From the NCBI RefSeq assembly GCF_023806565.1, contig NZ_JAMTDV010000114.1, positions 6,057 to 70,056 on the forward strand: DNA of 64,000 nucleotides. The letters run 5' to 3'. Source of the stretch: Accumulibacter sp. Its GTDB lineage: Bacteria; Pseudomonadota; Gammaproteobacteria; Burkholderiales; Rhodocyclaceae. Below are positions 3,962 through 31,426 of the stretch, piece after piece. Position numbers and translations under genes: made by a program. The notes under the pieces are model-generated. The model made no database searches. It worked only from the letters and a program-made list of their open reading frames with translations, and was not told the DNA's origin. The first letter of the stretch is position 1. The number at the start of each line of letters is the position of its first letter.

Positions 3962-5494
3962 ATGCACGACATCATTCGCCAGCTTGCAGACAAGCGCGCG
4001 GCCGCCTGTCTCGGTGGTGGTCAGAAACGCATCGACAACCAGCACCGGCAGGGAAAATTGGCTGCCCGCGAGCGCATCGAGCTGCTGCTCGACAGTGGCT
4101 CGTTCGAGGAATGGGACATGTTCAAGGAGCACCGTTGCAACGACTTCGGCATGGCGGAGCGCTCCGTGCCGGGCGACGGTGTGGTCATTGGCTGCGGCAC
4201 GATCAACGGTCGCCTGATGTTCGTTTTTTCGCAGGACTTCACGGTTTTCGGCGGCTCGCTATCTGAAGCGCATGCCGAGAAGATCTGCAAGGTCATGGAC
4301 CATGCGATCAAGGTCGGGGCGCCGGTGATCGGACTCAACGACTCGGGTGGTGCGCGCATCCAGGAGGGTGTGGCGTCGCTTGCCGGCTATGCCGACGTGT
4401 TCCAGCGCAACGTCCTTGCCTCGGGCGTCGTTCCACAAATCTCGCTGATCATGGGTCCGTGTGCTGGTGGCGCCGTTTATAGCCCATCGATGACCGACTT
4501 CATCTTCATGGTCAAGGACTCGTCGTACATGTTCGTCACCGGCCCGGAAGTGGTGAAGACGGTGACCCATGAGGACGTCACCGCCGAAGAACTGGGCGGA
4601 GCGATCACCCATACCAGCAAGTCGGGGGTGGCCGACCTCGCGTTCGAGAATGACGTCGAAGCGCTGATGATGATTCGCCGCTTCATCAGCTTCCTGCCGT
4701 CGAACAACCGCGAGAAGCCGCCACGTCTGCCGTCGCAGGATCCTGCCGATCGCCTCGACTTCTCGCTCGACACGCTGGTTCCGGACAATCCCAACAAACC
4801 GTACAACATCAAGGAACTGATCATCAAGATCGCTGACGATGGCGACTTCTTCGAGCTGCAACGCGAATACGCGAAGAACATCGTGATCGGTTTCGCGCGC
4901 ATGGACGGCTCGACGGTCGGCATCGTCGCCAACCAGCCTCTGGTTCTCGCCGGTTGTCTCGACATCAAGAGTTCGATCAAGGCCGCCCGCTTCGTGCGCT
5001 ATTGCGACGCATTCAACATCCCGGTGGTGACCTTCGTCGATGTGCCCGGTTTCATGCCTGGTACCGCGCAGGAATATGGCGGAATCATCAAGCACGGGGC
5101 CAAACTGCTCTACGCCTACGCCGAGTGCACGGTGCCGAAGATCACCGTGATCACGCGCAAGGCCTATGGTGGTGCCTACGACGTGATGGCTTCGAAGCAT
5201 CTGCGTGGCGACGTCAACTTCGCCTGGCCATCTGCCGAAATCGCGGTCATGGGTCCGAAGGGCGCGGTGGAGATCATTTTCCGCGAAGAAAAGAACGATC
5301 CGGCCAAGCTGGCGGCGCGCGAAGCGGAGTACAAGGCGAAATTCGCGAATCCCTTCGTCGCCGGCGCACGCGGCTTCATCGACGACGTGATCATGCCGAA
5401 CGAGACCCGCAAGCGCATCTGCCGCTCTCTCGCCATGTTGCGCAACAAGCAGCTGGAAAACCCGTGGCGCAAGCACGGCAACATTCCGCTTTGA
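3962..5494 (+). CDS. pccB: Propionyl-CoA carboxylase beta subunit (carboxyltransferase)
   Basis: 510 aa. Carboxyltransferase signatures: [60 protein letters not shown]. Confidence 0.92.
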
Positions 5495-5513
5495 TCCACG
5501 GGGAGATATAAAG

Positions 5514-7502
5514 ATGTTCAAGAAAATTCTGATCGCCAACCGGGGCGAAATTGCCTGCCGGGTGATGAAGACCGCCAAGAAGATGGGGATCAAGACGGTC
5601 GCAGTCTATTCGGAAGCCGACAAGGATTCGATGCACGTCCTGATGGCCGACGAGGGGGTGTGCATCGGGCCGCCGCCGTCCAAGGAGTCGTATCTGGTGA
5701 TCGACAAGATCATCGCCGCGTGCAAGCAGACCGGCGCCGAAGCCGTGCACCCGGGTTACGGATTTCTCTCCGAGAACGAGGAGTTCTCGCGCCGCCTCGA
5801 AGACGCGGGGATCGTCTTCATCGGGCCCAAGCATTATTCGGTGGCGGCGATGGGCGACAAGATCGCTTCGAAGAAGCTGGCGATGGAAGCGAAGGTCAAT
5901 ACCATCCCCGGTTACAATGCCGAAATCGCAGACTCTGCTCAGGCCGTCGAGATTGCCCGGGGGATCGGCTACCCGGTGATGATCAAGGCCTCTGCTGGCG
6001 GGGGCGGCAAGGGATTGCGCGTCGCATTCAACGACCAGGAAGCCGCCGAAGGTTTCGATGCCTGCCGCAACGAGGCGCGCAACAGCTTTGGCGACGATCG
6101 TGTGTTCATCGAGAAGTTCGTCGAAGGACCGCATCACATCGAGATTCAGGTGATCGCCGACTCCTTCGGCAACACGGTATATCTGCTCGAACGTGAGTGC
6201 TCGATTCAGCGGCGGCACCAGAAAGTGCTCGAGGAAGCTCCCTCGCCGTTCATCAATGACCAGATCCGCAAGGCGATGGGTGAGCAGGCGGTGGCACTGG
6301 CGAAGGCGGTGAATTACCAGAGCGCCGGCACCGTCGAGTTCGTCGTTGGCTCCGACAAGTCGTTCTATTTCCTTGAGATGAACACACGTCTGCAGGTCGA
6401 ACACCCGGTGACCGAAATGATCACCGGTGTCGACCTGGTCGAACTGATGATCCGCGTTGCCGCGGGCGAGAAGCTGCCATTCACCCAGGACGACATCAGG
6501 CCCAACGGCTGGGCGATCGAATGTCGGATCAACGCCGAGGACCCGTTCCGGGGCTTCCTGCCATCGGTCGGCCGCCTCGTGAAATACCGGCCACCGGCGA
6601 CGGCCGACGGACAGATCAGGGTGGATACCGGTGTTTTCGAGGGTGGCGAAATTTCGATGTATTACGATTCGATGATCGCCAAGCTGATCTGCCACGGCGC
6701 GACGCGCGACCAGGCGATTGGCCGGATGCGCGACGCCTTGAACGCTTTCGTCATCCGCGGCATCGATTCGAACATTCCGTTTCAGGCAGCCCTGATGCAG
6801 AATCCCCGCTTCCTGTCGGGAGTATTCACCACATCGTTCATCGCCGACGAGTTTCCCAACGGCTTCGATTCCTCCGACGTGGTTCACGACGACCCGGGAC
6901 TGCTTGCCGCTGTCGCCGCCTTCGGCCGTCGTCGCTACATCGATCGTGCGGTACAGATCAGTGGCCAGGTGCCGGGACACCAGCGCCGAGTAGGCAGCGA
7001 GTGGGTGGTCCAGATGGAGGGCAAGGATTATCCGGTGGTCGTCACGCCGATCTCCGGCGGCTACTCGGTGACGCACGGAAGCGATCGCTACGATCTCGTC
7101 TCCGACTGGAAATTCGGCGAACTGGTTTTCCACGGAACCTGCAACGGAGTGCCACTCTGTCTGCAACTCGAGCGCATCGGCCTGCTCTACCGTGTCGTCC
7201 ACTTCGGCAAGCAGGTCAAGGTGACGGTCATGACCGCCAATGCTGCGCGCATGCTTGCTCTGATGCCGAAAAAGGTGCCGCCGGACCTCTCGAAATTCCT
7301 GCTCTCGCCGATGCCCGGCTTGCTGCGCGAGGTATCTGTCGAAGCAGGGCAAGCAGTTGCAGCCGGCGAAAAGCTGGCGGTAATCGAGGCGATGAAGATG
7401 GAGAACGTCCTCAAGGCCGAGCGCGACTGCAAGGTGAAGAAGGTCGTCGCCGGTCCCGGAGAGAGTCTGTCGGTCGATCAGGTGATTCTCGAATTCGAGT
7501 AG
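5514..7502 (+). CDS. pccA: Propionyl-CoA (acyl-CoA) carboxylase alpha subunit: biotin carboxylase plus BCCP
   Basis: MFKKILIANRGEIACRV, ATP-grasp core, and a C-terminal biotinyl motif EAMKMEN. It is adjacent to pccB. Confidence 0.92.
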   Translation: MFKKILIANRGEIACRVMKTAKKMGIKTVAVYSEADKDSMHVLMADEGVCIGPPPSKESYLVIDKIIAACKQTGAEAVHPGYGFLSENEEFSRRLEDAGIVFIGPKHYSVAAMGDKIASKKLAMEAKVNTIPGYNAEIADSAQAVEIARGIGYPVMIKASAGGGGKGLRVAFNDQEAAEGFDACRNEARNSFGDDRVFIEKFVEGPHHIEIQVIADSFGNTVYLLERECSIQRRHQKVLEEAPSPFINDQIRKAMGEQAVALAKAVNYQSAGTVEFVVGSDKSFYFLEMNTRLQVEHPVTEMITGVDLVELMIRVAAGEKLPFTQDDIRPNGWAIECRINAEDPFRGFLPSVGRLVKYRPPATADGQIRVDTGVFEGGEISMYYDSMIAKLICHGATRDQAIGRMRDALNAFVIRGIDSNIPFQAALMQNPRFLSGVFTTSFIADEFPNGFDSSDVVHDDPGLLAAVAAFGRRRYIDRAVQISGQVPGHQRRVGSEWVVQMEGKDYPVVVTPISGGYSVTHGSDRYDLVSDWKFGELVFHGTCNGVPLCLQLERIGLLYRVVHFGKQVKVTVMTANAARMLALMPKKVPPDLSKFLLSPMPGLLREVSVEAGQAVAAGEKLAVIEAMKMENVLKAERDCKVKKVVAGPGESLSVDQVILEFE

Positions 7503-7794: not shown

Positions 7795-8106
7795 TCAGGC
7801 CGGCCTGCCCTGGGCAGCGGCGGGGGCGGCGACGTCGTAGATCAGTTGCAGATCGTTGTCTTCTGCGAAGTGCAGCACAAACCGGTATGCCATCGGCTCG
7901 ACTTCATACAGTCGGCCGTCAACGAATACTGCCTTTTCTCCCTTGTACGTGCGCGGGCCGACGTAGGGTGAATAGCGCATCTTCTTCTCGGCACCAAAAA
8001 CCGAAAGAACACCGCAAAGCCGTTCAGCCCAGTCACTCGGCCGGAACTTTTTGCCCGTGATGGTCAGACCGACGATGATGAAAGAGGAGTGCGATGAAGT
8101 GGTCAT
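7795..8106 (-). CDS. DUF3579-family small protein
   Basis: 103 aa. FIIVGLTITGKKFRPSDWAERLCGV...EPMAYRFVLHFAEDNDLQ matches my memory of the conserved DUF3579 core (FRPSDWAERLCG). Confidence 0.7.
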   Translation of the reverse strand: MTTSSHSSFIIVGLTITGKKFRPSDWAERLCGVLSVFGAEKKMRYSPYVGPRTYKGEKAVFVDGRLYEVEPMAYRFVLHFAEDNDLQLIYDVAAPAAAQGRPA

Positions 8107-8384: not shown

Positions 8385-8459
8385 TGGTGGGCGATAGTGG
8401 GTTCGAACCACTGACTTCCACCGTGTGAAGGTGGCACTCTACCACTGAGTTAATCGCCC
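8385..8459 (-). tRNA. tRNA-Val (anticodon CAC), CCA encoded
   Basis: Reverse complement: GGGCGAT-TA-ACTC-AGTGGTA-GAGT-G-CCACC-TTCACAC-GGTGG-AAGTC-AGTGG-TTCGAAC-CCACT-ATCGCCC-ACCA. It folds as a full cloverleaf with T33 and A37 flanking CAC. Confidence 0.85.
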
Positions 8460-8610: not shown

Positions 8611-9459
8611 TCAATCGACGCGACCGGGAACGACGCCATTCGCTGGCCGGACCAGCAGTATGGGCAAGGGATTGACGCCGTTGCGATGCGTGTGCCGATG
8701 GTTGCCGTCGGGATTGATCGCAGCTCCGAAGTTGGCCCAGTCGGGGTCCGGCAAGTCGGTGAATGCTTGCCGCAGGCGCTCGCCCCAGAGCGTGCGGATG
8801 GTGTTGAAATAGGCATTCTGCGGGCCAATGCTGATGTGCTGGCGCACCTGCAGCGCGCCGCTGGCGTAAATCAGAAGATCGAGCGGCATGCCCACGGAAA
8901 GGTTCGAGCGGATTGTCGAATCCATCGAAATCAATGCGCACTTGGCAGCTTCCTCGAAGCTCGTGCGCCGGGTAACGACGCGGTCGATGATAGGTTTCCC
9001 GTACTTTGACTCTCCGATCTGGAAGTAGGGGGTGTCTTCGCTGGCTTCGATGAAATTGCCCGCAGCATAGATGTTGAACAGGCGTGGCGCTTCGCCCGCG
9101 ATCTGGCCACCAAAGATGATCGACGAGTTGAACTCGATACCGAATGCTTTCAATGCCGCCGCGTCGCGCTGATACACTTCGCGTACAACCGCACCGATGT
9201 GGCGTGCCGCTTCGAAGAGGTTCGGCAGATTGCAGAGATGTTCGCCACCGTCGGCGTCGATGCGCTCGCGCAGAATATTGACCACAGACTGGCTGACCGA
9301 CAGGTTGCCGGCGGTCATCAGCACCAGCACTCGCTCGCCTGTGCGTTCGATCACCGTCATCTTGCGGAACGTATTGATGTGATCGACGCCGGCATTGGTG
9401 CGCGCATCGGACAGAAACACCAGGCCGGCATCCAGCTGCATCGCGACGCAGTAGGTCAT
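8611..9459 (-). CDS. Anbu-type proteasome beta-subunit homologue (Ntn-hydrolase 'proteasome-type protease')
   Basis: Starts MTYCVAMQLDAGLVFLSDARTN. After Met removal this gives Thr1, Asp17 and Lys32, matching the proteasome Thr1/Asp17/Lys33 triad with no propeptide. It is the last gene of an ATP-grasp/alpha-E operon. Confidence 0.85.
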   Translation of the reverse strand: MTYCVAMQLDAGLVFLSDARTNAGVDHINTFRKMTVIERTGERVLVLMTAGNLSVSQSVVNILRERIDADGGEHLCNLPNLFEAARHIGAVVREVYQRDAAALKAFGIEFNSSIIFGGQIAGEAPRLFNIYAAGNFIEASEDTPYFQIGESKYGKPIIDRVVTRRTSFEEAAKCALISMDSTIRSNLSVGMPLDLLIYASGALQVRQHISIGPQNAYFNTIRTLWGERLRQAFTDLPDPDWANFGAAINPDGNHRHTHRNGVNPLPILLVRPANGVVPGRVD

Positions 9460-9529: not shown

Positions 9530-10465
9530 TCAACCCGGTATCAGGAAGTCGCGGCTGATTCCATCACCGATCTCGAAGATGCGGTCCATGAAATCGGTCA
9601 GATACTCGTGCAGTCCGCCGGCTAGCACGTCGTCGATCCGCGCGAAGTGCAGGCGCGCGTGCAGGACTCCGGCCTGCCGTTCGGTTTCGGCAGACGCGCC
9701 GTTGGCGATCAATTGCAGCATGCGCACGATGCCGTCGGCACAGGAATGCAGCGACCGTGGCAGATTCATGTTGAGGATCAGCAACTCAGCCACGCGACCC
9801 GGGGTGATCGCGTCGCGATATACCTTGCGATAGACTTGGAATGCCGAAAGCGAACGAAGCAGGGCTCCCCAACGATAGAAGTCGCTGACCTCCTCGTCGT
9901 CGTTCTGTCGCAGGATGTGGTATTGCATGTCGAGAATTCGCGCCGTATTGTCTCCGCGCTCGAGCAGTCCTCCGAGGCGGATGAAATGCAGAGCGTCGTC
10001 CTTGAGCATGGTCCCGAAGGTCACGCCGCGCGTTACCGCCGAACGAAGCTTGACCCAGTCGAAGAATTCGCTGACGCCGCGTGCCAGAATGTGCTCGAAG
10101 TTCTGCTGCCGCAATTCGATCCAGGTGGCGTTCACGCTTTCCCACATTTCCGCAGTCATTGTGCCGCGCACGGCATGTGCATTTTCGCGTGCCGCTCGCA
10201 GGCAACTGTAGATCGACGAAGGGTTGGACGCGTCGGAAACCATGAAACGCAGGACGTTTTCGACATTCACGGCCGGGTATTCCCGGGCAAAGGCCGCCTC
10301 CAGACTGTTGAGGGCGAGAATCGCGCGCCAGTTCTCGTTCTGCGCCGCAAGCGATTGCGGTACCAGCGACATCTGGTAGGAAACATCGAGCAGACGCGCG
10401 AGGTTTTCGGCACGCTCGGTGTAACGCGCCATCCAGTAAAGATGGTCGGCTGTACGGCTCAACAT
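9530..10465 (-). CDS. Alpha-E domain protein
   Basis: MLSRTADHLYWMARYTERAENLARLLDVSY is the characteristic alpha-E N-terminus. It is 19 nt downstream of the ATP-grasp gene. Confidence 0.85.
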   Translation of the reverse strand: MLSRTADHLYWMARYTERAENLARLLDVSYQMSLVPQSLAAQNENWRAILALNSLEAAFAREYPAVNVENVLRFMVSDASNPSSIYSCLRAARENAHAVRGTMTAEMWESVNATWIELRQQNFEHILARGVSEFFDWVKLRSAVTRGVTFGTMLKDDALHFIRLGGLLERGDNTARILDMQYHILRQNDDEEVSDFYRWGALLRSLSAFQVYRKVYRDAITPGRVAELLILNMNLPRSLHSCADGIVRMLQLIANGASAETERQAGVLHARLHFARIDDVLAGGLHEYLTDFMDRIFEIGDGISRDFLIPG

Positions 10466-10484: not shown

Positions 10485-11903
10485 CTAGTTTTCCAACACC
10501 CAGGTATCCTTGGTTCCGCCGCCCTGTGACGAGTTCACCACCAGTGAGCCCTCGCGCAGCGCGACGCGCGTCAATCCGCCCGGTACCATGCCGATACCCC
10601 GCTTGCCGGAGAGCACGAAAGGGCGCAGGTCGAGATGGCGCGGAGCGATTCCCGACTCGACGAAAGTCGGGCAGTTGGACAGCGCCAGCGTCGGCTGTGC
10701 GATGTACTTCTCCGGCGAGGCGACGATCCGCGTCCGAAACTGCTCGATCTCGGCCCTGGTCGATGCCGGTCCCACCAGCATCCCGTAACCGCCGGCTCCA
10801 TGCACCTCCTTGACGACGAGTTCCGGCAGGTGCGCCAGTACGTAGCTAAGGTCCTCGGGTTTGCGCAACATCCAGGTCGGGACATTGTTGAGCTTCGGCT
10901 CTTCACCAAGGTAAAAGCGGATCATTTCCGGGACGTAGGGATAAATCGACTTGTCGTCGGCGACGCCGGTGCCAATGGCGTTGGCGAGCGTAACGTGGCC
11001 GGCGCGATAGGCGGCAAGCAGTCCCGGGACGCCGAGCATCGAGTCCTTGTTGAAAACGAGGGGGTCGAGAAAGTCGTCATCGAGCCGGCGGTAGATCACA
11101 TCGACCCGTTGTGGCCCCTGCGTGGTACGCATGAACACCGTTTCGTCGCGGACGAACAGATCCCGGCCCTCTACCAATTCGACGCCCATCTGCTGTGCCA
11201 GAAAAGTGTGCTCGAAGTACGCGCTGTTGTAGGCGCCCGGCGTCAGCAGCACGACTGTCGGATCGCTCACCCCCTTCGGTGCGACGCTGCGCAGGTTCTC
11301 GAACAGCATGTCGGGGTAGTGCTGGACCGGCGCGATCATTTGCCGCGAAAAGAGTTCGGGAAAGAGCCGCATCATCATCTTGCGGTCCTCGATCATGTAC
11401 GAGACGCCGGACGGGACGCGCAGATTGTCTTCCAGAACGTACGATTCGCCGGCCCCGGCGCGGACGATATCGACGCCGGCGATATGCGCGTAAATCCCGG
11501 AAGGCACGTCGACGCCGATCATCTCGGGCCGAAACTGCGCGTTGTGCAACACCTGCTCCGGTGGCAGGCGACCGCTCCTGAGGATCTCCTGCTCATGGTA
11601 GATGTCGTGCAGGAAGGCGTTGAGCGCTTTCACCCGCTGCCATAGTCCGGCCTGCAGCGCCTGCCACTCGGCCGCGGGAATGATGCGTGGAATGATGTCG
11701 AACGGGATCAGTCGTTCGGTGCCCGACTCCTCGCCATAGACGGCGAAGGTGATGCCGACGCGGTGAAATGCCGTATCCGCCTCGGTCCGCTTGCGTTCCA
11801 GGCGGTCGGCCGGCATCGCTGCCAGCCACTCGGCAAAAGTGCGGTAATGCGGCCGCAGCACACCGGCCGAATCGTACATCTCGTTATAGAAATGTGTACT
11901 CAT
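10485..11903 (-). CDS. Circularly permuted type-2 ATP-grasp protein (amidoligase-like)
   Basis: ORF 10485..11987. I moved the start to ATG 11903 ([20 protein letters not shown]...), which is preceded by GGTGAGGA. It is homologous over its length to the N-terminal half of ORF 18785..21346. Confidence 0.88.
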
Positions 11904-11937
11904 GGTCCTCACCATCAGTCTAGGTTTCAAAACGGCA

Positions 11938-11953
11938 AGCAGAAAGCGTGCCA
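11938..11953 (-). promoter_or_regulatory. Sigma54 (-24/-12) promoter for the ATP-grasp/alpha-E/Anbu operon
   Basis: The minus strand reads TGGCACG-CTTT-CTGCT, against the consensus TGGCACG-N4-TTGCW. The predicted transcription start is near 11927, about 24 nt upstream of ATG 11903. Confidence 0.55.
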
Positions 11954-12035
11954 CGCCATCGACTGGATCAAGGCCGAGCAAGCACAAGTCGGGTGATCAC
12001 TTTGCTGCCGGAAATGGTGCGATCTGCTGCCAGAA

Positions 12036-12052
12036 TGCACGCCATTGGTGCA
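12036..12052. promoter_or_regulatory. NtrC-type enhancer (UAS) palindrome
   Basis: TGCACGCCATTGGTGCA, against the consensus TGCACC-N5-GGTGCA (11 of 12 half-site positions). It is centred about 117 bp upstream of the predicted sigma54 start. A degenerate second site, TGCTGCCGGAAATGGTGCG, lies at 12003-12021, about 31 bp away. Confidence 0.45.
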
Positions 12053-12230
12053 TTTGCCTCGCGTTGCGAACGGTTCCGAAGAAGCAGAATACCTGTCGAG
12101 AGTCGGCACGAAGCTTGCTTGGAAACCAGGGGCAGCCGCAAGCGAAGACCGCTCTTCGTTGCGGTCGCGCTCGCTCGCCGGGATGGCTTTCCCAGCCAGG
12201 CACGTGCGGGTATCGTTGAAGAGGCGAAAC

Positions 12231-12569
12231 ATGAAGACACCGAAGATTCTTCCCTGGCTGGCACGTCGGACCGGAGTGAGCGATGAACGTGCCGAAGACC
12301 TGTGGCGCGCTGCCTGTCAGCAGGCGACAGCACTTACCGGCGAGCGGGACGGCCCGTGCTATTGGGGTGCAGCAGTGCAGACCCTGCTGGATCTGCTCGA
12401 AGCCGAGCGCTGGAAAGCCGGCACGGTGTTTGTGTGGCCCTGGCTCTTGCTGCCATACGGCATCGAGCAGTGGTCCTTGCTTGCCAGGCGCTGGCTGGCG
12501 CCCAGCGCATTGTTGCGTGGGCGGCCGGCCGCGGATTGCTGCCCGATGCAGGTCGGCGGGGCGCGATGA
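12231..12569 (+). CDS. Hypothetical Trp-rich 112-aa protein, translationally coupled to glnD
   Basis: ATG 12231 is preceded by GAGG at a 6-nt spacing. Third codon positions are mostly G/C. Its stop overlaps the glnD start (gcgATGAgg, 12566-12569). I recognise no family. Confidence 0.45.
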
Positions 12570-15154
12570 GGCCGACGCCTCACGGCGCTGCGCGTACCAA
12601 GAGTTGGCTGCAGGACGGGCAGAGGAAGATTCGTGAGGATTTCCTCGCCGACGGTGACGCAAAGCGCCTGCTGCGCAATCGCTGTTCCCTGATCGACGAG
12701 ATTCTCTGCGCCCTCTGGAGCGAGCTGGGATTGCCGGATTCGCTCGCGCTGATCGCTGTTGGCGGCTATGGCCGCGGCGAACTGTACCCCTCCTCGGACG
12801 TCGATCTGCTGATCCTGCTGCCGGAACAACCCGGCCACGCGTTGGCCGCGCAGCTCGAAGGGCTGGTGTGTGCATTCTGGGACATCGGACTCGAAACCGG
12901 TCATAGCGTGCGTACCATCGAGCAATGTCTGGAGGAGGCCGCTGGCGACATCACGGTGCAGACGGCAATGATCGAGGCGCGCCGGCTGGCTGGCAACGTC
13001 GAACTGTTCGAGGGTTTCTCGCGCATCTTCCAGCAGAGTGTCGATGCTCGCGCCTTCTTCCAGACGAAGAAGATGGAGCAGGAAGATCGCCATCAGCGCT
13101 TCAGCGACACGCCTTACAGTCTGGAAGCGAACTGCAAGGAAGGTCCGGGTGGGCTGCGCGACCTGCAGCTCATCCTGTGGATTGCGCAGGCAGCGGGCTA
13201 TGGCAGGTGCTGGAACGACCTCGAACGACACGGCTTCATCACCGTGGAAGAGGCGGCGCTTCTCGACCACAGCGAAGCCTTCCTGCGCCGCTTGCGCACG
13301 CAACTGCACCTGCACGTCGGTCGCCGGGAAGATCGCCTGCTGTTCGATTACCAGACGGCGTTGGCGGATAAGCTGGGATTTTCCGCCAGCGCCGAACGCC
13401 GCTCCAGTGAGCAAATGATGCAGCACTACTATCGGGTGGCGAAAACCATCACGCAGATCACCGGAATCCTTCTGCAGAACATCGGCGAGGCGTTGTTCCC
13501 GCCTCCGGACGAGCTTCCGCAAGCGATCAACGATCGTTTCCAGAATGCGCACGAGTTCCTCGACGTGGTAGACGAAAACGTGTTTCAGCGGACACCGTCC
13601 GCGCTGCTCGAGGCCTTTCTGCTCCTCCAGCAACATCCGGAGTTGAAAGGCATGAGTGCCCGCACGCAGCGCGCCCTGTGGCGCGCACGCAATCTGATCG
13701 ACGACGACTTCCGCCACGATCCGGGCAATCGCGCACGTTTTCTGGCAATTCTCAAACAGGGGAACCGCCTGGTCCAGGAATTCCGGCGGATGAACCAGCT
13801 TGGCGTTCTCGGTCGCTATCTGCCCAATTTCGGGCGCATCGTCGGCCAGATGCAGCATGACCTCTTTCACGTCTATACCGTCGACCAGCACATCCTGCAG
13901 GTGATCCGCCGCCTGCGTCGCTTCACGATGGAGGAGTTCGCTCACGAATATCCTTTCTGCAGCAGGCTGATCAGCGACCTCGGCAATCCCTGGATTCTCT
14001 ATATCGCCGCCCTGTTTCACGACATTGCCAAAGGCCGTGGCGGCGATCACTCGGAACTCGGGGCGGGCGACGCGCGCAGCTTTTGCGAGGTGCACGGTCT
14101 CGCCGATGAAGACACCGAACTGATCGTCTGGCTCGTTCGCCAGCACCTCCTGATGTCCCGGATCGCGCAGAAGGAGGATATCTCCGATCCTGGCGTTGTC
14201 GCCCGATTTGCCAAGGTCGTTGGCAACGAGCGCCGTCTGATCGCGCTTTATCTGTTGACCGTCGCCGACATTCGCGGGACCAGTCCGAAAGTTTGGAATG
14301 CATGGAAGGGGCAACTGCTCGAACAACTGTTCACGGCGACCCGACGCTTCCTGCTGTCTGGCGAAGATACGTTGATGACCCACGGTGTCATCGCCCAGCG
14401 TCAGCAAGAGGCGCTTCGGTTGATGCGCTACCTGGCTCTTCCGGAGAAGGCGCACGAAGAACTATGGCAGCAACTCGACACGGTGTACTTTCTACGTCAG
14501 TCGGCAGAGGAAATCGCCTGGCACGCCCGCGCCGTGCACGACTGCGTCGAGAGCGAGCGGCCCGTGGTCCGGGCGCGCCTCAATCCGCTCGGTGCGGGAC
14601 TCGAAGTGATGGTTTACACGCGCGATCAGGAAGACCTGTTCGTGCGCATGGTCGGCTTTTTCAGCCGTGCCGGCTACAGCATCGTCGACGCCAAGATCCA
14701 TACCACACGGCATGGCTATGCACTGGACACGTTCATGCTGCTCGACGTTTCCGGTCGCGACAGCGACCGAGCCATGATCAGCTATATCGAACACGAGCTT
14801 GCCGAACGGCTGCTCCACCCGGCACCGCCGGAAGTCCCGGCCAACGGACGAATCTCGCGTCAGGTCAGGCATTTCCCGATACAACCGCTGGTCAGCATTC
14901 AGCCCCTGGTCAGTCTGGAAGCCGACGAAACCGGCACATTGTTCGTATTGACCGTGGTCGCCGCCGACCGTCCCGGTCTGCTGTTCCTTGTTGCCAACGA
15001 ACTGGCCCGGCATGATGCCAATCTGCACACCGCCAAGATCGCCACCCTGGGCGAACGGGTCGAGGATACCTTTCTGATCAGTGGTGACCACCTGGACGAG
15101 AGCGCCGGGCGAGTCAAACTGGAAACCGATCTGCTGAAACAGCTGCAAGCCTGA
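12566..15154 (+). CDS. glnD: [Protein-PII] uridylyltransferase / uridylyl-removing enzyme GlnD
   Basis: ORF 12302..15154. I moved the start to ATG 12566 ([26 protein letters not shown]...), giving about 862 aa. It has the nucleotidyltransferase motif [17 protein letters not shown], the HD-domain segment [16 protein letters not shown], and two C-terminal ACT-like regions. Confidence 0.92.
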
Positions 15155-15313: not shown

Positions 15314-15329
15314 TGGCGCGGTTCTTGCT
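15314..15329 (+). promoter_or_regulatory. Sigma54 (-24/-12) promoter for the large transglutaminase operon
   Basis: TGGCGCG-GTTC-TTGCT, against the consensus TGGCACG-N4-TTGCW. The predicted start is near 15340. GGAG lies at 15355-15358, 6 nt before GTG 15365. Confidence 0.5.
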
Positions 15330-15364: not shown

Positions 15365-18300
15365 GTGTCCATTCATGTTGCCCTCAATCACCTTACCCGT
15401 TATCGCTACGATCGTCTGGTCAATCTTTCGCCACAGGTTGTCCGCCTGCGCCCGGCACCTCATTCGCGAACGCCGATACTCAGCTACTCGCTGAAAATCA
15501 CCCCGGCGCAGCATTTCATCAATTGGCAGCAGGATCCGCAGGCGAATTACCTGGCTCGTCTGGTGTTTCCGGAAAAGACGCGCGAGTTTTGCATCGAAGT
15601 GGATCTGGTCGCCAACGTCTCGGTAATCAATCCTTTCGATTTCTTTCCCGAGCCGTACGCGACCACCTTTCCTTTCTCGTACGAAGCATGGCAGCAGGAG
15701 GAGCTCGAACCGTATCTGCATTGCCTGCCGCTGACGGCACAGGTGCGCCAGTTTCTGGCGACGATTCCGCGCGAGCCGCGGGGGAGCGTCGACTTTCTCG
15801 TCGACCTCAACCGGCAGGTGCAAAGCGCGGTGAGTTACGTAATCCGCCTCGAACCGGGCGTGCAGACGCCCGAAGAAACGCTCACGCTGGGCCGGGGCTC
15901 GTGCCGGGATTCCGCCTGGCTGCTGGTGCAGTTGTTGCGACATCTGGGGCTCGCTGCGCGCTTCGTTTCCGGTTACCTGATTCAGCTCGTTCCCGACGTG
16001 AAATCGCTGGACGGACCTTCGGGAACCGATCACGACTTCACCGACCTGCACGCCTGGTGCGAAGTCTACCTGCCAGGCGCTGGCTGGATCGGCCTCGACC
16101 CCACCTCGGGCCTCTTCGCCGGCGAAGGTCACATACCACTGGCCTGCTCGCCGCAACCGTCGTCGGCGGCGCCAATCACCGGCTTCACCGAAAAGTGCGA
16201 ATGCGAGTTCGAGCATCACATGAAGATCGAACGCGTCTGGGAGGCGCCGCGGGTCACCAAACCTTATGACGAGGAGCAGTGGGCGGCGATCGAAGCCATT
16301 GGGCACCGGATCGACGCGGATCTGAGCAGCGGCGACGTCCGTCTGACGATGGGGGGCGAGCCGACCTTCGTCTCGATCGACGATCATGACGGGGCCGAAT
16401 GGAACGTCGACGCCCTCGGTCCGACCAAGCGGGCGCGGGCGGCGGACCTCTTTCAACGCCTGCGCGCGAAGTACGCGCCGCAGGGGCTGCAGCACTTCGG
16501 CCAGGGCAAATGGTATCCCGGCGAGCAGTTGCCGCGCTGGTCGCTGAACTGCTTCTGGCGGCGCGACGGTCAGCCGGTGTGGAAGAATCCGGGGCTGTAT
16601 GCCGACGAAACCTGCAATTACGGAGCCGACGAGGCGCTCGCCGGGCACTTTCTGCGCAGTCTCGCCGAACGGCTGGCAATCGACCCGGGGTATGTCTTTC
16701 CGGCCTTCGAAGACGTCTATTACTATCTCTGGCGCGAACACCGCCTGCCGATCAACGTCGACCCCTTGAACTCGCGACTCGATGATCCGATCGAACGCGA
16801 GCGACTGGTGAAGATCTTTCGCCAGGGGCTGGACACGGTGGCCGGCCATGTGCTGCCGCTGCGACGTCACGCGCAGGGCGGCTGGCAGAGTGGCAAGTGG
16901 TTCCTGCGAGCCGGCCGCTGCCATCTGATTCCGGGCGATTCTCCGATCGGCTATCGCCTGCCGCTCGACTCGCAGCCTTGGGTGGCCAAGACCGACTATC
17001 CGTACATCCACACGCCCGATCCGACGCAGTACTTTCCGCCGTTGCCCGACTATGCCGAAATCCGCGCCCAAAGTGCGGTCAGCCGCAGTCAGAGTGCGAG
17101 CGACGAAGCCGCAGCGGTGACCGGCGAACACTTTGCCGAACGGGCGCTCGAGCGAGTCGCCGAGTCGCTGGCGCACGCGGCCGACGGTTCGCGCGAAGGG
17201 CTGCCAGCGGATGCAGCGGCGGCGGTCATCCGCACCTCCCTGTCGGCACAGGCGCGTGACGGAGTTCTGTACCTCTTCATGCCGCCAACGGAGACACTGG
17301 ACGACTATCTGGAACTGGTCGCCGCCGTCGAGGCGACCGCCGAAGCACTGACCACGCCGGTTATCATCGAAGGCTACGAGCCGCCGTCCGACCCTCGCCT
17401 GACCAACTTCCGTGTCACGCCTGATCCCGGGGTGATCGAAGTCAATATTCAGCCGTCGGCCAGTTGGGATGAACTCGTCGAACGCACTACGCACCTCTAT
17501 GAAGCGGCGCGCCTGTCGCGCCTGTGTACCGAGAAATTCATGCTCGACGGTCGACATACCGGTACCGGCGGCGGCAACCATTTCGTGTTTGGTGGCGCCA
17601 CCGTTCTCGACTCACCTTTCCTTCGCCGTCCCGACCTGCTGCGCAGCCTGATCAGTTACTGGCACAACCACCCGTCGCTTTCGTACCTCTTTTCCGGCCT
17701 GTTCATCGGTCCGACGAGCCAGTCGCCACGGGTAGACGAGGCGCGCAACGACTCGGTATACGAGCTCGAGATCGCCTTCGGCCAGTTTCCGCCGGTCGGC
17801 GACGCTGAAGAGTACGTCGCACCATGGATCATCGACCGTGTGCTGCGCAACCTGTTGATCGACTCCACCGGCAACACGCACCGCGCCGAGTTCTGCATCG
17901 ACAAGCTCTATTCGCCCGAGGGCCCGAGCGGGCGCCTCGGGCTGCTCGAAATGCGCGCCTTCGAAATGCCGCCGCACGCGCGCATGTCGCTGGCACAGCA
18001 GCTTCTGCTGCGCGCGCTGATCGCGCGCTTCTGGCGGACCCCTTACGCGCCCGAGCGACTGGTCCGCTGGGGCACAGAGCTGCACGACCGCTTCATGCTG
18101 CCGTATTTCGTGCAGCAGGATTTCGACGACGTCATCAGCGAATTGCGCGCTGCCGGTTATCCCCTCGAAAGCGCGTGGTTCGCGCCGCATTTCGAATTCC
18201 GCTTTCCCCTGCACGGCCGCATCGCAGTGAAAGGTATCGAGCTGGAACTGCGGCATGCGCTCGAACCCTGGCATGTGATGGGCGAGCAGGCAACGGCGGG

Positions 18301-18742
18301 AGCGACCGTGCGCTACGTCGACTCCTCGCTCGAACGCGTACAGATCAGGGTCACGGGCATGGCCAGCGATCGCTACGTGGTGGGTTGCAATGGTTGTGCG
18401 CTGCCGATGCGCTCGACCGGCAAGGTTGGCGAGTTTGTCGCCGGCGTGCGCTACCGCGCCTGGCATCCGCCGTCGGCGCTGCATCCGACGATCGGCGTCC
18501 ATGTGCCGCTGGTCTTCGACCTGGTCGATAGCTGGATGAAACGCTCTCTCGGCGGTTGCCAGTATCACGTCGAGCATCCCGGTGGGCGCAACCCCGATCG
18601 CTATCCGGTCAATGCCAACGAGGCGGAAGGTCGTCGGCTGGCACGCTTCACACCGTTCGGTCACACCCCCGGCGCGATCGACTTGCAGCCACCGCCGGCG
18701 AATGCCGGCTTCCCGTTTACGTTAGACTTGCGGCGACCCTGA
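15365..18742 (+). CDS. Large transglutaminase-family protein (N-terminal bacterial transglutaminase region, Cys-His-Asp core, long DUF2126-like C-terminal region)
   Basis: 1125 aa with a GTG start. The N-terminus MSIHVALNHLTRYRYDR is typical. Catalytic motifs: GSCRDSAWLL, DLHAWCEVY, GLDPTSG. Confidence 0.9.
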   Translation: MSIHVALNHLTRYRYDRLVNLSPQVVRLRPAPHSRTPILSYSLKITPAQHFINWQQDPQANYLARLVFPEKTREFCIEVDLVANVSVINPFDFFPEPYATTFPFSYEAWQQEELEPYLHCLPLTAQVRQFLATIPREPRGSVDFLVDLNRQVQSAVSYVIRLEPGVQTPEETLTLGRGSCRDSAWLLVQLLRHLGLAARFVSGYLIQLVPDVKSLDGPSGTDHDFTDLHAWCEVYLPGAGWIGLDPTSGLFAGEGHIPLACSPQPSSAAPITGFTEKCECEFEHHMKIERVWEAPRVTKPYDEEQWAAIEAIGHRIDADLSSGDVRLTMGGEPTFVSIDDHDGAEWNVDALGPTKRARAADLFQRLRAKYAPQGLQHFGQGKWYPGEQLPRWSLNCFWRRDGQPVWKNPGLYADETCNYGADEALAGHFLRSLAERLAIDPGYVFPAFEDVYYYLWREHRLPINVDPLNSRLDDPIERERLVKIFRQGLDTVAGHVLPLRRHAQGGWQSGKWFLRAGRCHLIPGDSPIGYRLPLDSQPWVAKTDYPYIHTPDPTQYFPPLPDYAEIRAQSAVSRSQSASDEAAAVTGEHFAERALERVAESLAHAADGSREGLPADAAAAVIRTSLSAQARDGVLYLFMPPTETLDDYLELVAAVEATAEALTTPVIIEGYEPPSDPRLTNFRVTPDPGVIEVNIQPSASWDELVERTTHLYEAARLSRLCTEKFMLDGRHTGTGGGNHFVFGGATVLDSPFLRRPDLLRSLISYWHNHPSLSYLFSGLFIGPTSQSPRVDEARNDSVYELEIAFGQFPPVGDAEEYVAPWIIDRVLRNLLIDSTGNTHRAEFCIDKLYSPEGPSGRLGLLEMRAFEMPPHARMSLAQQLLLRALIARFWRTPYAPERLVRWGTELHDRFMLPYFVQQDFDDVISELRAAGYPLESAWFAPHFEFRFPLHGRIAVKGIELELRHALEPWHVMGEQATAGATVRYVDSSLERVQIRVTGMASDRYVVGCNGCALPMRSTGKVGEFVAGVRYRAWHPPSALHPTIGVHVPLVFDLVDSWMKRSLGGCQYHVEHPGGRNPDRYPVNANEAEGRRLARFTPFGHTPGAIDLQPPPANAGFPFTLDLRRP

Positions 18743-18750
18743 AACCACTC

Positions 18751-18774
18751 GGCGCGGGAGCATGTTCCCGCGCC
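18751..18774 (+). other. Intra-operon GC-rich hairpin between the large transglutaminase gene and the ATP-grasp fusion gene
   Basis: GGCGCGGGA-GCATGT-TCCCGCGCC: a 9-bp stem with no U-tract. It sits in the 42-nt gap before ATG 18785. Confidence 0.35.
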
Positions 18775-18784
18775 CGCTTGCTTC

Positions 18785-21346
18785 ATGCCGCAATCGCTGC
18801 TCGCGAACTATCCGAGGAAGACCGACCGTTTCGACGAAATGCTCGCCGAAGATGGGAGCGTTCGTCCGTCCTGGAAACCGTTTTTCGCTCACCTCGATGT
18901 GGTGACCCCCGAGCAGATGCGGCACCGGCTCGACTTCGTTCGCCGCAGCATCCTCGAGAACGGCGTCACCTACAACGTCTACGCCGACCCGAAGGGCGCC
19001 GACCGACCGTGGGAACTCGACCCCTTGCCGCTGATCCTCTCTTCTGCCGAATGGCAGGAGCTGGCTGGCGCGGTGATGCAGCGCGCGCGCCTGCTCAACG
19101 CGGTGCTCCAGGATCTCTACGGCCCACAGGATCTGCTCCGCGACGGCAGTCTGCCGCCCGCCCTGGTTTTCGGCCACAACAATTTTCTCTGGCCGTGCCA
19201 GGGGGTCCGTCCCCCCGGTGATACCTACCTGCACCTCTACGCCGCCGACCTCGCGCGTTCGCCCGACGGTCGCTGGTGGGTGATCGCCGACCGCACGCAA
19301 GGGCCGTCCGGTGCGGGTTACGCGCTGGAAAACCGGACCATCGTCGCGCGCGTTTTTCCAGAGCAATTTCGCGACCTGCACGTGCAGCATCTGGCGTTCT
19401 TCTTTCGGGAGCTGCAGGACAGTCTGGCCTGCTGGGCGCCGCGCGGTGAAGATCCACCGCTGACCGTACTGCTCACTCCAGGTCCCTACAACGAGACCTA
19501 CTTCGAGCATGCTTACCTCGCGCGCTACCTCGGTTTCCCGCTGGTCGAGGGGCAGGATCTGACGGTGCGCAGCGATTGTGTCTACCTGCGGACACTGAGC
19601 GGCTTGCGCCGCGTGCATGCGATTCTGCGCCGGCTCGACGACGACTACTGTGACCCGCTCGAACTGCGCGGCGATTCTGCGCTCGGCGTTCCCGGTCTCC
19701 TGCAGGCGGTTCGTGCGGGCAATGTCCTGGTTGCCAACGCGCTCGGCAGCGGCCTGATCGAATCGGCGGCGCTGCCGGGCTTCCTCCCCGGTATCTGCAA
19801 GAGAATGCTCGGCGAGCCGCTGGCGATGCCATCGGTTGCTACCTGGTGGTGCGGCGAGCAGGCCGCGCTTGAGTTTACCATCGAGCATCTCGACCAACTG
19901 GTGATCAAGGGTTCGTACCCCTCGCAGCGTTTCGATCCGATCTTTGGCAACGAGCTCGCCGGTGGTAGACGCCAGGAAATGATCGATCGCCTGCGCGCCC
20001 GCCCGCAAGCCTATGTCGCCCAGGAACTGGTCAACTTTTCGGAAGCCCCGACCTGGAGCACGAAGCATGGGCGGCAACTCGTGCCACGCGGCGTCGGCCT
20101 GCGTGTTTTCGTTGCCGCCACTCCGACAGGTCACGTGGTGATGCCGGGCGGCTTGACGCGCGTCTCGGCAGCTTCGAATGCGCGAGTGATCTCGATGCAG
20201 CGTGGTGGCTCGAGCAAGGACACCTGGGTGCTCACTACCGACGCGGCGGTCAATACCTTCAGCCTGCTCAAACCGTCGGTCGGGAAGGCCGATCTCGTCC
20301 GCGGCGGTCGCAATCTGTCGTCGCGCGTGGTGGAAAACCTGTACTGGTTCGGCCGGTACGCAGAACGCTGCGACAAGACGTCCCGCCTGCTGCGCGTCGC
20401 CCTTTCGCGTCTCGTCGACGCCGGTGCCGACACGCTGCCGGCGCTGATTTCGGCTATCGATCTATGCCGTGTCCTGCAGCTCCTGGTTACCGCCGAGGGC
20501 GAAACCAACGGCTCCCCCAAGGGCAAGGGGGGCGCCTCCGGGTTGCCGCGTGAGACGCTGATTCTCTCCGCCATTTGCGGTGCGGACGCAAACGACGGCT
20601 TGGCCGGCGACCTTCGCCGCCTGTTGTGGGTGGCCACCCAGGTACGCGAGCGATTCTCGCTCGACAACTGGCACGCGATCAATCGCCTGCAGCACCAGTT
20701 GCAGCAGTACTGCGCGGCGGTGCGCGAAAACGCGAATCCGGAGTTGGGGGAGGCGCTCGCCTTTCTCGATCAGGTACTCCTTGCATCATCGTCGCTGGCG
20801 GGTTTCGCCATGGATAACATGACCCGCGACGACGGCTGGCGTTTTCTGATCATCGGCCGACGGATCGAGCGACTGGTGTTCCTCGCCAACGCCGTCTCGG
20901 GTTTTCTGCGCCTCGAATCGACGCGCGCTCCGGGCAGTCTCGAATGGCTGCTCGAACTCACCGACAGCATCATCACCTATCGCTCGCGCTACATGATCCA
21001 GCCGCAGGTGTTGCCGACGCTCGACCTGATCGTTTTCGACGAGGGCAACCCGCATTCGGTTGCGTTCCAACTGCAAATCCTCGTTCGTTACCTCGACAAC
21101 CTTACGCGCCTGCTCGGTGGACCACGCGACGACGCGTTGCCGCAGGCACTCTCGCGTCTGCAAGGCTTCGACCTCGCCCGCTTCGAGGGACAGAGCTTCC
21201 GCGAATGCCGAATCTGCGATCCGTGCATCGCACTCGCCAGCCTGCTCGGCGAGATTTCCATCGCTGCGGCGACGCTCTCGGATCGCCTGGCGATGCGCTA
21301 TTTCAGTCATGTCGGCGACGTCAGCCGACAAACCTTTACTTCCTGA
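18785..21346 (+). CDS. Fusion protein: circularly permuted type-2 ATP-grasp plus alpha-E domain
   Basis: 853 aa. The N-terminal half parallels the 472-aa ATP-grasp protein at 10485..11903 (for example AEWQELAGAVMQRARLLNAVLQDLYG against [26 protein letters not shown]). The C-terminal half contains SSRVVENLYWFGRYAERCDKTSRLLRV, the alpha-E signature. Confidence 0.9.
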   Translation: MPQSLLANYPRKTDRFDEMLAEDGSVRPSWKPFFAHLDVVTPEQMRHRLDFVRRSILENGVTYNVYADPKGADRPWELDPLPLILSSAEWQELAGAVMQRARLLNAVLQDLYGPQDLLRDGSLPPALVFGHNNFLWPCQGVRPPGDTYLHLYAADLARSPDGRWWVIADRTQGPSGAGYALENRTIVARVFPEQFRDLHVQHLAFFFRELQDSLACWAPRGEDPPLTVLLTPGPYNETYFEHAYLARYLGFPLVEGQDLTVRSDCVYLRTLSGLRRVHAILRRLDDDYCDPLELRGDSALGVPGLLQAVRAGNVLVANALGSGLIESAALPGFLPGICKRMLGEPLAMPSVATWWCGEQAALEFTIEHLDQLVIKGSYPSQRFDPIFGNELAGGRRQEMIDRLRARPQAYVAQELVNFSEAPTWSTKHGRQLVPRGVGLRVFVAATPTGHVVMPGGLTRVSAASNARVISMQRGGSSKDTWVLTTDAAVNTFSLLKPSVGKADLVRGGRNLSSRVVENLYWFGRYAERCDKTSRLLRVALSRLVDAGADTLPALISAIDLCRVLQLLVTAEGETNGSPKGKGGASGLPRETLILSAICGADANDGLAGDLRRLLWVATQVRERFSLDNWHAINRLQHQLQQYCAAVRENANPELGEALAFLDQVLLASSSLAGFAMDNMTRDDGWRFLIIGRRIERLVFLANAVSGFLRLESTRAPGSLEWLLELTDSIITYRSRYMIQPQVLPTLDLIVFDEGNPHSVAFQLQILVRYLDNLTRLLGGPRDDALPQALSRLQGFDLARFEGQSFRECRICDPCIALASLLGEISIAAATLSDRLAMRYFSHVGDVSRQTFTS

Positions 21347-21351
21347 TCGCC

Positions 21352-22269
21352 GTGAGTCCGTCCATCGCCCGCTATCACATCGTTCACGAGACGACGTACA
21401 GCTACGAAAGTCCGGTGTCGCTATCGCGGCAATTGCTGCACCTGACGCCGCGTACTTGCGCGTGGCAGCGTTGCCTCGGGCACCGGATCACGGTTGCGCC
21501 AGAGGCGAGCGCGGGACGCGAGCGTCTCGACAGTTTCGGCAATCCGGTGACCGAACTGGCGATCGAGTTTCCACATGAGAGTCTCAGCGTTCGCGCCGAA
21601 GGCACCATCGAGGTGCTGCCACACTTGCCTTCCGAGCATCTGGACAGTGCCTCGCCGGCGTGGGAAATCGTACGCGACGCGCTGACCTACGGAGCTCGTC
21701 CGGTGCTGCTAGACGCCAGTTGTTTTCAGTTCGAATCACCCTATGTGCGCGTCAAGCACGAATTTGCCGCTTATGCGAAGGCCTGCTTTCCCAGCGGCCG
21801 GCCGCTGCTGGACGCAGTGCATGCACTGATGAGCCGCATTCACAGCGAGTTCGAATTCGACCCCGAGGCAACCACGGTCGCCACTCCGGTGCTCACGGTG
21901 CTTGCCGAAAGACGTGGCGTCTGTCAGGACTTCGCGCACCTGATGCTTTCCTGCCTGCGGTCGCAAGGACTCGCCGCGCGCTACGTCAGTGGCTATCTGC
22001 TCACCCACCCGCCACCCGGGCGACCGCGAATGGTCGGCGCCGATGCTTCGCACGCCTGGGTATCGGTGTATTGCCCGGAGCGCGAAGGCGGTCGCTGGGT
22101 GGACTTCGACCCGACCAACAACCTGCTGCCCGATACGCAGCACATCACTCTGGCCTGGGGACGCGATTTCGCCGACGTTTCGCCACTGCGCGGGGTCATT
22201 CTCGGTGGCGACGCGCATGAACTCGCGGTGGCGGTGACGGTCACCCCGGTCACAACCGCCGGCACCTAG
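21352..22269 (+). CDS. Transglutaminase-family protein (small form, about 305 aa)
   Basis: ORF 20944..22269. I moved the start to GTG 21352, 5 nt after the upstream stop (VSPSIARYHIVHETTYSYESPV, a typical N-terminal domain). Catalytic motifs: GVCQDFAHLM, SHAWVSVY, DFDPTNN. Confidence 0.88.
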   Translation: MSPSIARYHIVHETTYSYESPVSLSRQLLHLTPRTCAWQRCLGHRITVAPEASAGRERLDSFGNPVTELAIEFPHESLSVRAEGTIEVLPHLPSEHLDSASPAWEIVRDALTYGARPVLLDASCFQFESPYVRVKHEFAAYAKACFPSGRPLLDAVHALMSRIHSEFEFDPEATTVATPVLTVLAERRGVCQDFAHLMLSCLRSQGLAARYVSGYLLTHPPPGRPRMVGADASHAWVSVYCPEREGGRWVDFDPTNNLLPDTQHITLAWGRDFADVSPLRGVILGGDAHELAVAVTVTPVTTAGT

Positions 22270-23916: not shown

Positions 23917-24004
23917 GACGGAATTCGGTAGGCGGTGACGGAGCGACGAATTATAGCCGTCGACACGTCCGGTGGGCGCCACGCATGGCGACCGCAGCCG
24001 TCGC

Positions 24005-24796
24005 CTACTTGGTTTGCTTTTCGTACTGCCCGACGACGTTCTCCATGGTTTCGAGAATGCGTTCGCTGGTCGTCGCAACGACAGTTGCCTGGCGCTTGTC
24101 GGTACTGCCAAGCTGGCCCAGCGCGTTCTCGAAGAACAGCCATTGCTGCCGGACGAGTTCGAGATCTTCGCGCAGCGCCGGGGTATTGTTCGGTGCGGCA
24201 GCGAGTTCCTGCAGCCCGGCGGCAAATTCCCGGCGCGCCCTGTCGATTTCCGCTGCGGCCTGTTCGACCCCGATCTTCCACGCCGCTGCCTGGTAAAATT
24301 TCGCCATGCGTTGCGAGAGCATGCGCTGGCGACCGGCAAGGTTTACCAGCCGGGCACTGCTCGTCGTCGACCGATTTTCGAGTTGTTGCGTTCCCTTTTG
24401 CGCGAGTGCCAGCACCTCGTCGGAGAGGGCGAGGATTCTGGCGCCGTCTGCCAGGTTGGGCGCGCTGGCAGTGAGTGCCTGGCGATAGGTCTGCCAAGTA
24501 CGTTCGAGTTTCTGGTAGGTTTCCCTGATTTCCTGTGACGGTGCGAAAGCCTTCAGTTCCGCGAGTTGTCGATCGAACAGGGCAACAGAACCATCGAGCA
24601 CCTTGCGCGAGCGATCGACGTCTACGCCGAGACCGAGCTGGAAATAGGCCTTGGCCATGCGCTGCGAGAGCATTCGCTGCCGGCCGGCCTTGTTGATTGC
24701 CGAATTCAGGTCGCTCACCTCTGCCCGGGCGACGACGGCCAATGACAGAAGCAGCAGCAGGAGGATAGTGTGACGGATCGAAACCGGGCTCAGCAT
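24005..24796 (-). CDS. Secreted PilJ/NarX-type N-terminal sensor-domain protein (stand-alone, internally duplicated)
   Basis: Signal peptide MLSPVSIRHTILLLLLLSLAVVARA. There are two P-box-like repeats, AGRQRMLSQRMAKAY and AGRQRMLSQRMAKFY. I see no transmitter or MCP domain. Confidence 0.7.
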   Translation of the reverse strand: MLSPVSIRHTILLLLLLSLAVVARAEVSDLNSAINKAGRQRMLSQRMAKAYFQLGLGVDVDRSRKVLDGSVALFDRQLAELKAFAPSQEIRETYQKLERTWQTYRQALTASAPNLADGARILALSDEVLALAQKGTQQLENRSTTSSARLVNLAGRQRMLSQRMAKFYQAAAWKIGVEQAAAEIDRARREFAAGLQELAAAPNNTPALREDLELVRQQWLFFENALGQLGSTDKRQATVVATTSERILETMENVVGQYEKQTK

Positions 24797-31354: not shown

Positions 31355-31426
31355 TTGTAACCACTTTGCCAGGGCTCTTCAGTGCCGCCGGCAGCCGGTT
31401 CCGCTCGATCACGCGAAGATAAGGCA

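Follow-up and report, generated by a model that had tools for sequence, protein, structure and literature searches.

A probable sigma-54 promoter with an upstream NtrC-type enhancer ahead of an ATP-grasp/alpha-E/Anbu operon in Accumulibacter

What controls the transcription of an operon that encodes the proteasome-like peptidase Anbu in Accumulibacter? The operon is located on contig NZ_JAMTDV010000114.1 (assembly GCF_023806565.1) within a stretch of 64,000 nucleotides (nt), which in its full length is referred to as the window and comes from a Candidatus Accumulibacter-like member of the Rhodocyclaceae. Genes for a circularly permuted ATP-grasp protein, an alpha-E domain protein and Anbu follow each other on the minus strand (Table 1). 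Judged from its sequence elements, their conservation and the behavior of related operons, the region in front of the ATP-grasp gene is most likely the sigma-54 (RpoN) promoter of this operon, driven by an upstream enhancer of the NtrC type.

The putative promoter element TGGCACGCTTTCTGCT agrees with the extended -24/-12 consensus TGGCACG-N4-TTGCW at 11 of the 12 specified positions, CTGCT taking the place of TTGCW. On the minus strand, the GG dinucleotide (11952-11951) and the GC dinucleotide (11940-11939) are spaced by exactly 10 nt. The element is directed at the start of the ATP-grasp gene, whose ATG (11903-11901) is situated 34 nt beyond its end. Transcription would begin near position 11927, giving rise to a 5' untranslated region of about 24 nt that would contain the Shine-Dalgarno sequence. 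A TTG at 11987 was rejected as the ATP-grasp start in favor of the ATG at 11903, which is regarded as the true start because homologues align from residue 1 and both the ATG and its ribosome-binding site are conserved. The GGTGA of the Shine-Dalgarno sequence is kept in the alignment of Accumulibacter-type loci. Within the 328-nt intergenic region neither a sigma-70-like promoter or hexamer pair, nor an Rfam element (Rfam scan), nor an IHF-like site (consensus search) was found.

Upstream of the promoter element two sites resembling the 17-bp NtrC dyad consensus TGCACC-N5-GGTGCA can be observed. The distal dyad is centered at 12044, 91 nt ahead of the first promoter base (the T of TGG), which corresponds to about -117 relative to the predicted start. 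The proximal site, centered at 12012, is 59 nt ahead of the same T (about -85), at a distance of 32 bp to the distal dyad. Both the promoter and the distal dyad had been proposed from the letters of the window before. The original prediction of a close match to the -24/-12 consensus on the minus strand at 11953-11938, well placed ahead of the ATG, is base-exact, with GG-N10-GC intact, and its reading of 12036-12052 as an NtrC palindrome matching at 11 of 12 positions, about 117 bp upstream of the predicted start, is confirmed as well. A degenerate second site about 31 bp away could likewise be located, at 12003-12021 and a distance of 32 bp, but it consists only of the half-site GCACCA and deviates from the full dyad at six positions. 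The term "textbook glnAp2-like" goes too far for an arrangement of one strong site plus a half-site.

Comparison with glnAp2 of E. coli illustrates this point. That sigma-54 promoter is activated from NtrC dyads about 100-140 bp upstream, two strong sites and three weak ones; it needs no IHF site, and its two main sites, spaced by 32 bp, share one face of the helix. The 32-bp spacing recurs here, and the intergenic region is also devoid of an IHF-like site. In contrast to glnAp2, the present arrangement combines one strong dyad with a half-site, and both are located nearer to the promoter (about -117 and -85). Moreover, glnAp2 drives glutamine synthetase, whereas the predicted promoter in the window precedes a peptide-ligase/protease module.

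Motif counts within the window alone are only weakly significant and provide modest evidence. With up to two mismatches, sigma-54 matches occur at background level (15, compared with 13.2 expected), and the eight NtrC dyads (4.0 expected) were likewise reported as background. These loose counts were dropped as evidence, being at chance level, and tighter thresholds, pair statistics and conservation were used instead. With at most one mismatch, three sigma-54 sites (0.89 expected) and two dyads (0.21 expected) are present, and none of 1000 dinucleotide-preserving shuffles of the window produced a sigma-54 site preceded at 40-200 nt by a dyad. A further sigma-54-like sequence, TGGCACGCTTTCCGCT at 23222-23237 on the minus strand, is identical to the operon promoter over its first 12 bases. 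The sequence is embedded in sense orientation in a gene for an MscS-family channel (22285-24342) and probably represents either a chance match or a cryptic intragenic sigma-54 site.

The decisive evidence for the proposed promoter and enhancer is their conservation. The window was compared with 80 orthologous loci from Accumulibacter, Propionivibrio, Azovibrio, Azospira, Zoogloea and relatives, resulting in a set of 81 upstream regions. A -24/-12 element, defined by intact GG and GC and no more than two mismatches, is present in all 81 of them, compared with 0.8% of the shuffled regions that served as control, and in 77 cases it is situated 30-62 nt ahead of the gene start. The anchored consensus reads TGGCA(C/T)(G/A)-N4-nnGCT, with spacer and flanks being unconstrained. 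A dyad with two or fewer mismatches is found in 61 of the 81 regions (0.7% by chance). Among the Accumulibacter-type loci, 30 of 32 carry such a dyad in the slot 86-108 nt upstream, where about 0.2% would be expected by chance, and in most of these loci the distance is 91-94 nt. The dyad consensus of the family reads TGCACC-N5-GGTGC(G/A), and the left half of the proximal half-site reaches 90% conservation or more across the Accumulibacter-type loci. Propionivibrio and Zoogloea display a strong dyad at 58-60 nt together with more sites near 78 and 102 nt; the slot that harbors a full dyad in these genera is the one occupied by the half-site in the window.

Alignment of the 32 Accumulibacter-type upstream regions with MAFFT underlines how sharply this conservation is confined. 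Pairwise identity of the aligned regions to the window is just 37-48% (about 40% in the flanking DNA), and four conserved islands stand out: the dyad, the half-site GCGCACCA about 32 bp downstream of it, the -24/-12 element, and the ribosome-binding site with the ATG. Both the cis-elements and their geometry are under strong evolutionary constraint. Since the gene located upstream of the operon varies between genomes, the sites travel with the ATP-grasp operon and not with its neighbor. In two Accumulibacter loci the -24/-12 element and the ATG have been moved apart by an insert of about 100-120 bp, so that the promoter is found 131-153 nt upstream.

Table 1. Features of the Anbu operon, its upstream region and the plus-strand genes beyond it (positions in the window).
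Feature	Position	Strand	Remarks
Sigma-54 -24/-12 promoter element, TGGCACGCTTTCTGCT	11938-11953	minus	1 mismatch to TGGCACG-N4-TTGCW
Predicted transcription start	11925-11929	minus	about 11-12 nt downstream of the -12 GC, from standard sigma-54 geometry
Shine-Dalgarno sequence before the ATP-grasp ATG, GGTGAGGA	11906-11913	minus	read from the sequence
Distal NtrC-type dyad, TGCACGCCATTGGTGCA	12036-12052		minus-strand reading TGCACC-AATGG-CGTGCA; 11/12 dyad positions
Proximal half-site	12003-12021		GCACCA at 12020-12015; left half intact, right half degenerate
Circularly permuted ATP-grasp gene	10485-11903	minus	Pfam CP_ATPgrasp_2, E = 2e-168
Alpha-E domain gene	9530-10465	minus	Pfam Alpha-E, E = 2e-96
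Anbu (proteasome-like peptidase) gene	8611-9459	minus	PDB sequence matches 5LOY (1e-94), 5LOX (5e-74), 5NYF
Divergent sigma-54-like element, CGGCACGAAGCTTGCT	12104-12119	plus	GG-N10-GC intact; points away from the operon
Conserved small open reading frame	12231-12569	plus	112 amino acids; stop overlaps glnD start (ATGA)
glnD, PII uridylyltransferase	12566-15154	plus	NCBIfam NF002837 equivalog, 1313 bits; Pfam GlnD_UR_UTase, HD, ACT
Third sigma-54-like site, TGGCGCGGTTCTTGCT	15314-15329	plus	35 nt before the DUF2126 GTG start
DUF2126 gene	15365-18742	plus	
ATP-grasp/alpha-E fusion gene	18743-21346	plus	
Transglutaminase gene	21349-22269	plus	

In the operon, the alpha-E gene starts 19 nt past the stop codon of the ATP-grasp gene. 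Sequence matches of the Anbu protein to the solved Anbu structures 5LOY, 5LOX and 5NYF reach E-values of 1e-94 to 1e-72, and the match to the Pfam Proteasome family is weak. Its N-terminus reads MTYC, so that removal of the methionine leaves a threonine as residue 1. NCBIfam provides no names for the ATP-grasp, alpha-E or Anbu proteins, nor for the product of the small open reading frame described below. The best orthologues show 93% identity at protein level. Of the genes by which the Anbu operon has been defined (Valas and Bourne 2008; Fuchs et al. 2017), those for ATP-grasp, alpha-E and Anbu are present and that for transglutaminase is absent. The gap between alpha-E (ending at 9530) and Anbu (starting at 9459) amounts to just 70 nt and holds no transglutaminase gene; therefore one defining member of the published four-gene operon is missing here. 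The transglutaminase genes of the window lie on the opposite strand (15365-18742, listed as DUF2126 in Table 1, and 21349-22269). Directly downstream of Anbu, a gene for tRNA-Val(CAC) is situated on the minus strand (8385-8459), ahead of a DUF3579 gene (7795-8106).

Within the family the Anbu gene itself is not a constant companion of the promoter. At 62 Rhodocyclaceae loci the sequence extends 2 kb or more beyond alpha-E; only 15 of these loci carry Anbu there, and for this reason the ATP-grasp/alpha-E pair, not Anbu, is considered the unit invariably coupled to the predicted promoter. In many Accumulibacter genomes alpha-E is followed directly by the DUF3579 gene, and in Azovibrio and Azospira the gene that comes after Anbu, on the same strand, is DUF2126.

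Outside of the Rhodocyclaceae the picture becomes heterogeneous. A sigma-54 site in front of the ATP-grasp gene matches perfectly in Caballeronia, is present in Aeromonas and Acinetobacter, and is weaker in Klebsiella and Methylobacterium. A canonical site is lacking in Ralstonia, in the Anbu-type operon of B. cenocepacia, in Paracoccus, in Azospirillum and in S. meliloti, and a universal sigma-54 wiring was rejected on these grounds. The predicted wiring is widespread, not universal. The operons of Ralstonia, B. cenocepacia and Paracoccus that show no recognizable sigma-54 site are canonical four-gene Anbu operons; the same operon therefore appears to be wired differently between lineages.

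Published experiments connect this gene module with nitrogen starvation. According to the note added in proof of PMC3235984 and a statement in PMC5666114, both of which cite Hervas 2008, the Anbu operon PP_2685-2688 of P. putida is among the genes most induced by nitrogen limitation. These two passages bear out the original prediction, which had mentioned reports of Anbu-operon induction in pseudomonads when nitrogen is limiting. The operon has further been attributed to NtrBC (PMC7801951), and some 200-300 bp of DNA from in front of PP_2688 conferred 3.7-fold induction on nitrogen depletion; the fragment upstream of PP_2685, the Anbu gene, was constitutive and nitrogen-agnostic (PMC8050072). 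In P. aeruginosa, Anbu is reported to be expressed constitutively at moderate levels (PMC5666114). The operon of P. putida KT2440 (PP_2688-PP_2685) starts with the ATP-grasp gene and belongs to the same operon family as that of the window, the comparison covering genes and nitrogen response. It differs in having four genes, including a transglutaminase gene, instead of three, and in belonging to a gammaproteobacterium and not to the Rhodocyclaceae.

In B. cenocepacia H111 the related cluster I35_5080-83 (ATP-grasp/alpha-E/transglutaminase/DUF2126; BCAM1233-1236 region) is sigma-54- and NtrC-dependent by RNA-seq (PMC5491218). Like the operon of the window it is found in a betaproteobacterium and opens with ATP-grasp and alpha-E, but it continues into transglutaminase and DUF2126 without Anbu; it is closer to the plus-strand cluster of the window than to the Anbu operon. 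In another B. cenocepacia strain, chromosome 2 carries the orthologous cluster in the order ATP-grasp, alpha-E, transglutaminase, DUF2126. The -24/-12 element AGGCACGTTCCTTGCA precedes it, and NtrC dyads are situated 72 nt (TGCACCGTTGTGGTGCG) and 115 nt upstream of this element. In B. multivorans a dyad is found at 58 nt. NtrC is named as the candidate activator because the same cis-architecture precedes the NtrC- and sigma-54-dependent cluster of B. cenocepacia, and because the dyad is canonical. The canonical dyad and the clusters of P. putida and B. cenocepacia likewise suggest nitrogen as the signal and the predicted position as the start site. The earlier proposal that the operon belongs to the Ntr regulon gains support from the footprint of four constrained islands and from the data on these two species, and it appears probable on this combined basis. 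A literature search for Accumulibacter together with NtrC returned nothing relevant.

The arrangement of the sites suggests how the promoter could operate. When nitrogen becomes limiting, phosphorylated NtrC would occupy the strong dyad at about -117 and the half-site at about -85, which are three helical turns apart. NtrC would then oligomerize and, via DNA looping, reach the closed complex of the sigma-54 holoenzyme at the -24/-12 element. Using ATP, it would open the promoter, and transcription would proceed from near 11927 through all three genes.

Several observations weigh against an NtrC-driven sigma-54 promoter. The second site is merely a half-site, the Anbu operons of Ralstonia, B. 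cenocepacia and Paracoccus show no sigma-54 site, and in a P. putida rpoN mutant PP_2686-2688 were still induced 14-20-fold (PMC7801951), which fits badly with strict sigma-54 dependence in that organism. In addition, neither rpoN nor ntrC is encoded in the 64-kb window. Classical Ntr genes, which would have provided a control for the combination of dyad and sigma-54 site, do not occur within the 700 kb of flanks of the orthologous loci. A reading that takes the motifs as chance matches in GC-rich DNA, with the operon being transcribed from an unrecognized sigma-70 promoter, could draw on the background counts at two mismatches, on the constitutive expression of Anbu in P. aeruginosa (PMC5666114) and on the nitrogen-agnostic fragment upstream of PP_2685 (PMC8050072). 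Coincidence, however, would have to account for an element in 81 of 81 regions against 0.8% of shuffled ones and for a dyad that keeps its position in DNA otherwise only about 40% identical; moreover, no sigma-70-like hexamer pair was found. This explanation is scarcely credible, and the conservation data have in effect refuted it. The sigma-54 promoter could also be real with its enhancer bound by another enhancer-binding protein, for instance an NtrC paralogue responding to a different signal. Rhodocyclaceae encode many such proteins, the proximal site is incomplete, and NtrC has been assigned solely by the resemblance of the motif and by analogy with other species. Against a different activator stand the conserved sequence TGCACC-N5-GGTGC(G/A), which is the canonical NtrC dyad, and the nitrogen- or NtrC-responsive orthologous and paralogous clusters of P. 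putida and B. cenocepacia (PMC8050072, PMC5491218), the latter bearing the same dyad, so that this possibility is rather unlikely. A sigma-54 promoter driven by NtrC continues to be the favored interpretation.

An extension of this interpretation, adding to it and not replacing it, concerns the opposite strand, where the dyad may act as a shared enhancer for the Anbu-operon promoter and a back-to-back sigma-54 promoter formed by CGGCACGAAGCTTGCT. This second promoter would transcribe the small open reading frame, glnD and possibly the DUF2126, ATP-grasp/alpha-E fusion and transglutaminase genes. The small open reading frame has no Pfam or NCBIfam match; in tblastn searches it is recovered with 48-67% identity in at least 10 Accumulibacter-type loci, always directly upstream of glnD. 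In CGGCACGAAGCTTGCT the GG-N10-GC spacing is kept, and the center of the distal dyad lies 60 nt upstream, a slot that is in use in other genera. In an alignment of positions 11960-12245 of the window with nine other Accumulibacter-type loci, conservation ahead of the small open reading frame and glnD covers the core GCACG-N4-TTGCTTG plus about 25 nt on its upstream side in all nine. A GCAC-N7-GTGC dyad is situated 150-184 nt further upstream in most of the 10 other loci scanned, and in Ralstonia the near-identical CGGCACGAACCTTGCTTGA precedes a DUF2126 gene (L093:1421). Speaking against a second promoter, the first G of the -24 GG is replaced by C or T in seven of these 10 loci, which is very unusual for functional sigma-54 promoters, and the leader would be long, at about 110 nt. 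CGGCACGAAGCTTGCT itself is located 111 nt ahead of the small open reading frame. Furthermore, glnD is classically constitutive in enterobacteria. Because of the atypical -24 GG in seven of 10 loci, a shared enhancer and a nitrogen-regulated glnD are held as possible and unproven, with the shared enhancer being doubtful. Still a little more tentative is the proposal that one NtrC dyad serves both back-to-back promoters in such a way that nitrogen starvation co-induces the Anbu module and the unit of small open reading frame and translationally coupled glnD, possibly reading on into DUF2126, the ATP-grasp/alpha-E fusion and transglutaminase. A literature search on the promoter and expression of glnD yielded nothing helpful.

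If the shared enhancer were real, the primary nitrogen sensor GlnD would be under positive feedback by NtrC and embedded in an island made up of two functionally uncharacterized peptide-ligase/protease systems. The shared enhancer with this feedback is the sole part of the analysis that could be new.

Farther along the plus strand, the third sigma-54-like site, TGGCGCGGTTCTTGCT, has a counterpart at the same distance in two Azospira loci (L052:8474; L055:8444), where NtrC-like dyads are found 70-80 nt upstream. The single Accumulibacter locus spanning this junction does not conserve the site, and no dyad is present upstream of it in the window, the best match having four mismatches. The window is rich in global regulators of nutrient status, comprising glnD, glnE, a RelA/SpoT homologue, polyphosphate kinase ppk1 and exopolyphosphatase ppx (coordinates listed for these genes: 12566-15154, 31361-34165, 38391-40631, 40703-42928 and 42999-44567). 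At its left end, genes for methylmalonyl-CoA mutase (536-2863) and propionyl-CoA carboxylase (3962-7502) are located.

The known mechanisms of sigma-54 and NtrC are left unchanged by these results. With regard to the gene module, the locus is a family-wide new example of a link to nitrogen starvation already known from Pseudomonas and Burkholderia. With regard to what Anbu and its ATP-grasp/alpha-E partners do biochemically, control by nitrogen starvation represents the best physiological clue available. The predicted sigma-54/NtrC wiring is strictly kept across this whole betaproteobacterial family, and it stays with ATP-grasp/alpha-E even where Anbu has been lost. This retention lends the clue more weight and suggests that the response centers on the ligase pair. 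Accumulibacter, the uncultured workhorse of phosphorus removal, would gain a candidate member of the Ntr regulon together with a candidate nitrogen-responsive promoter.

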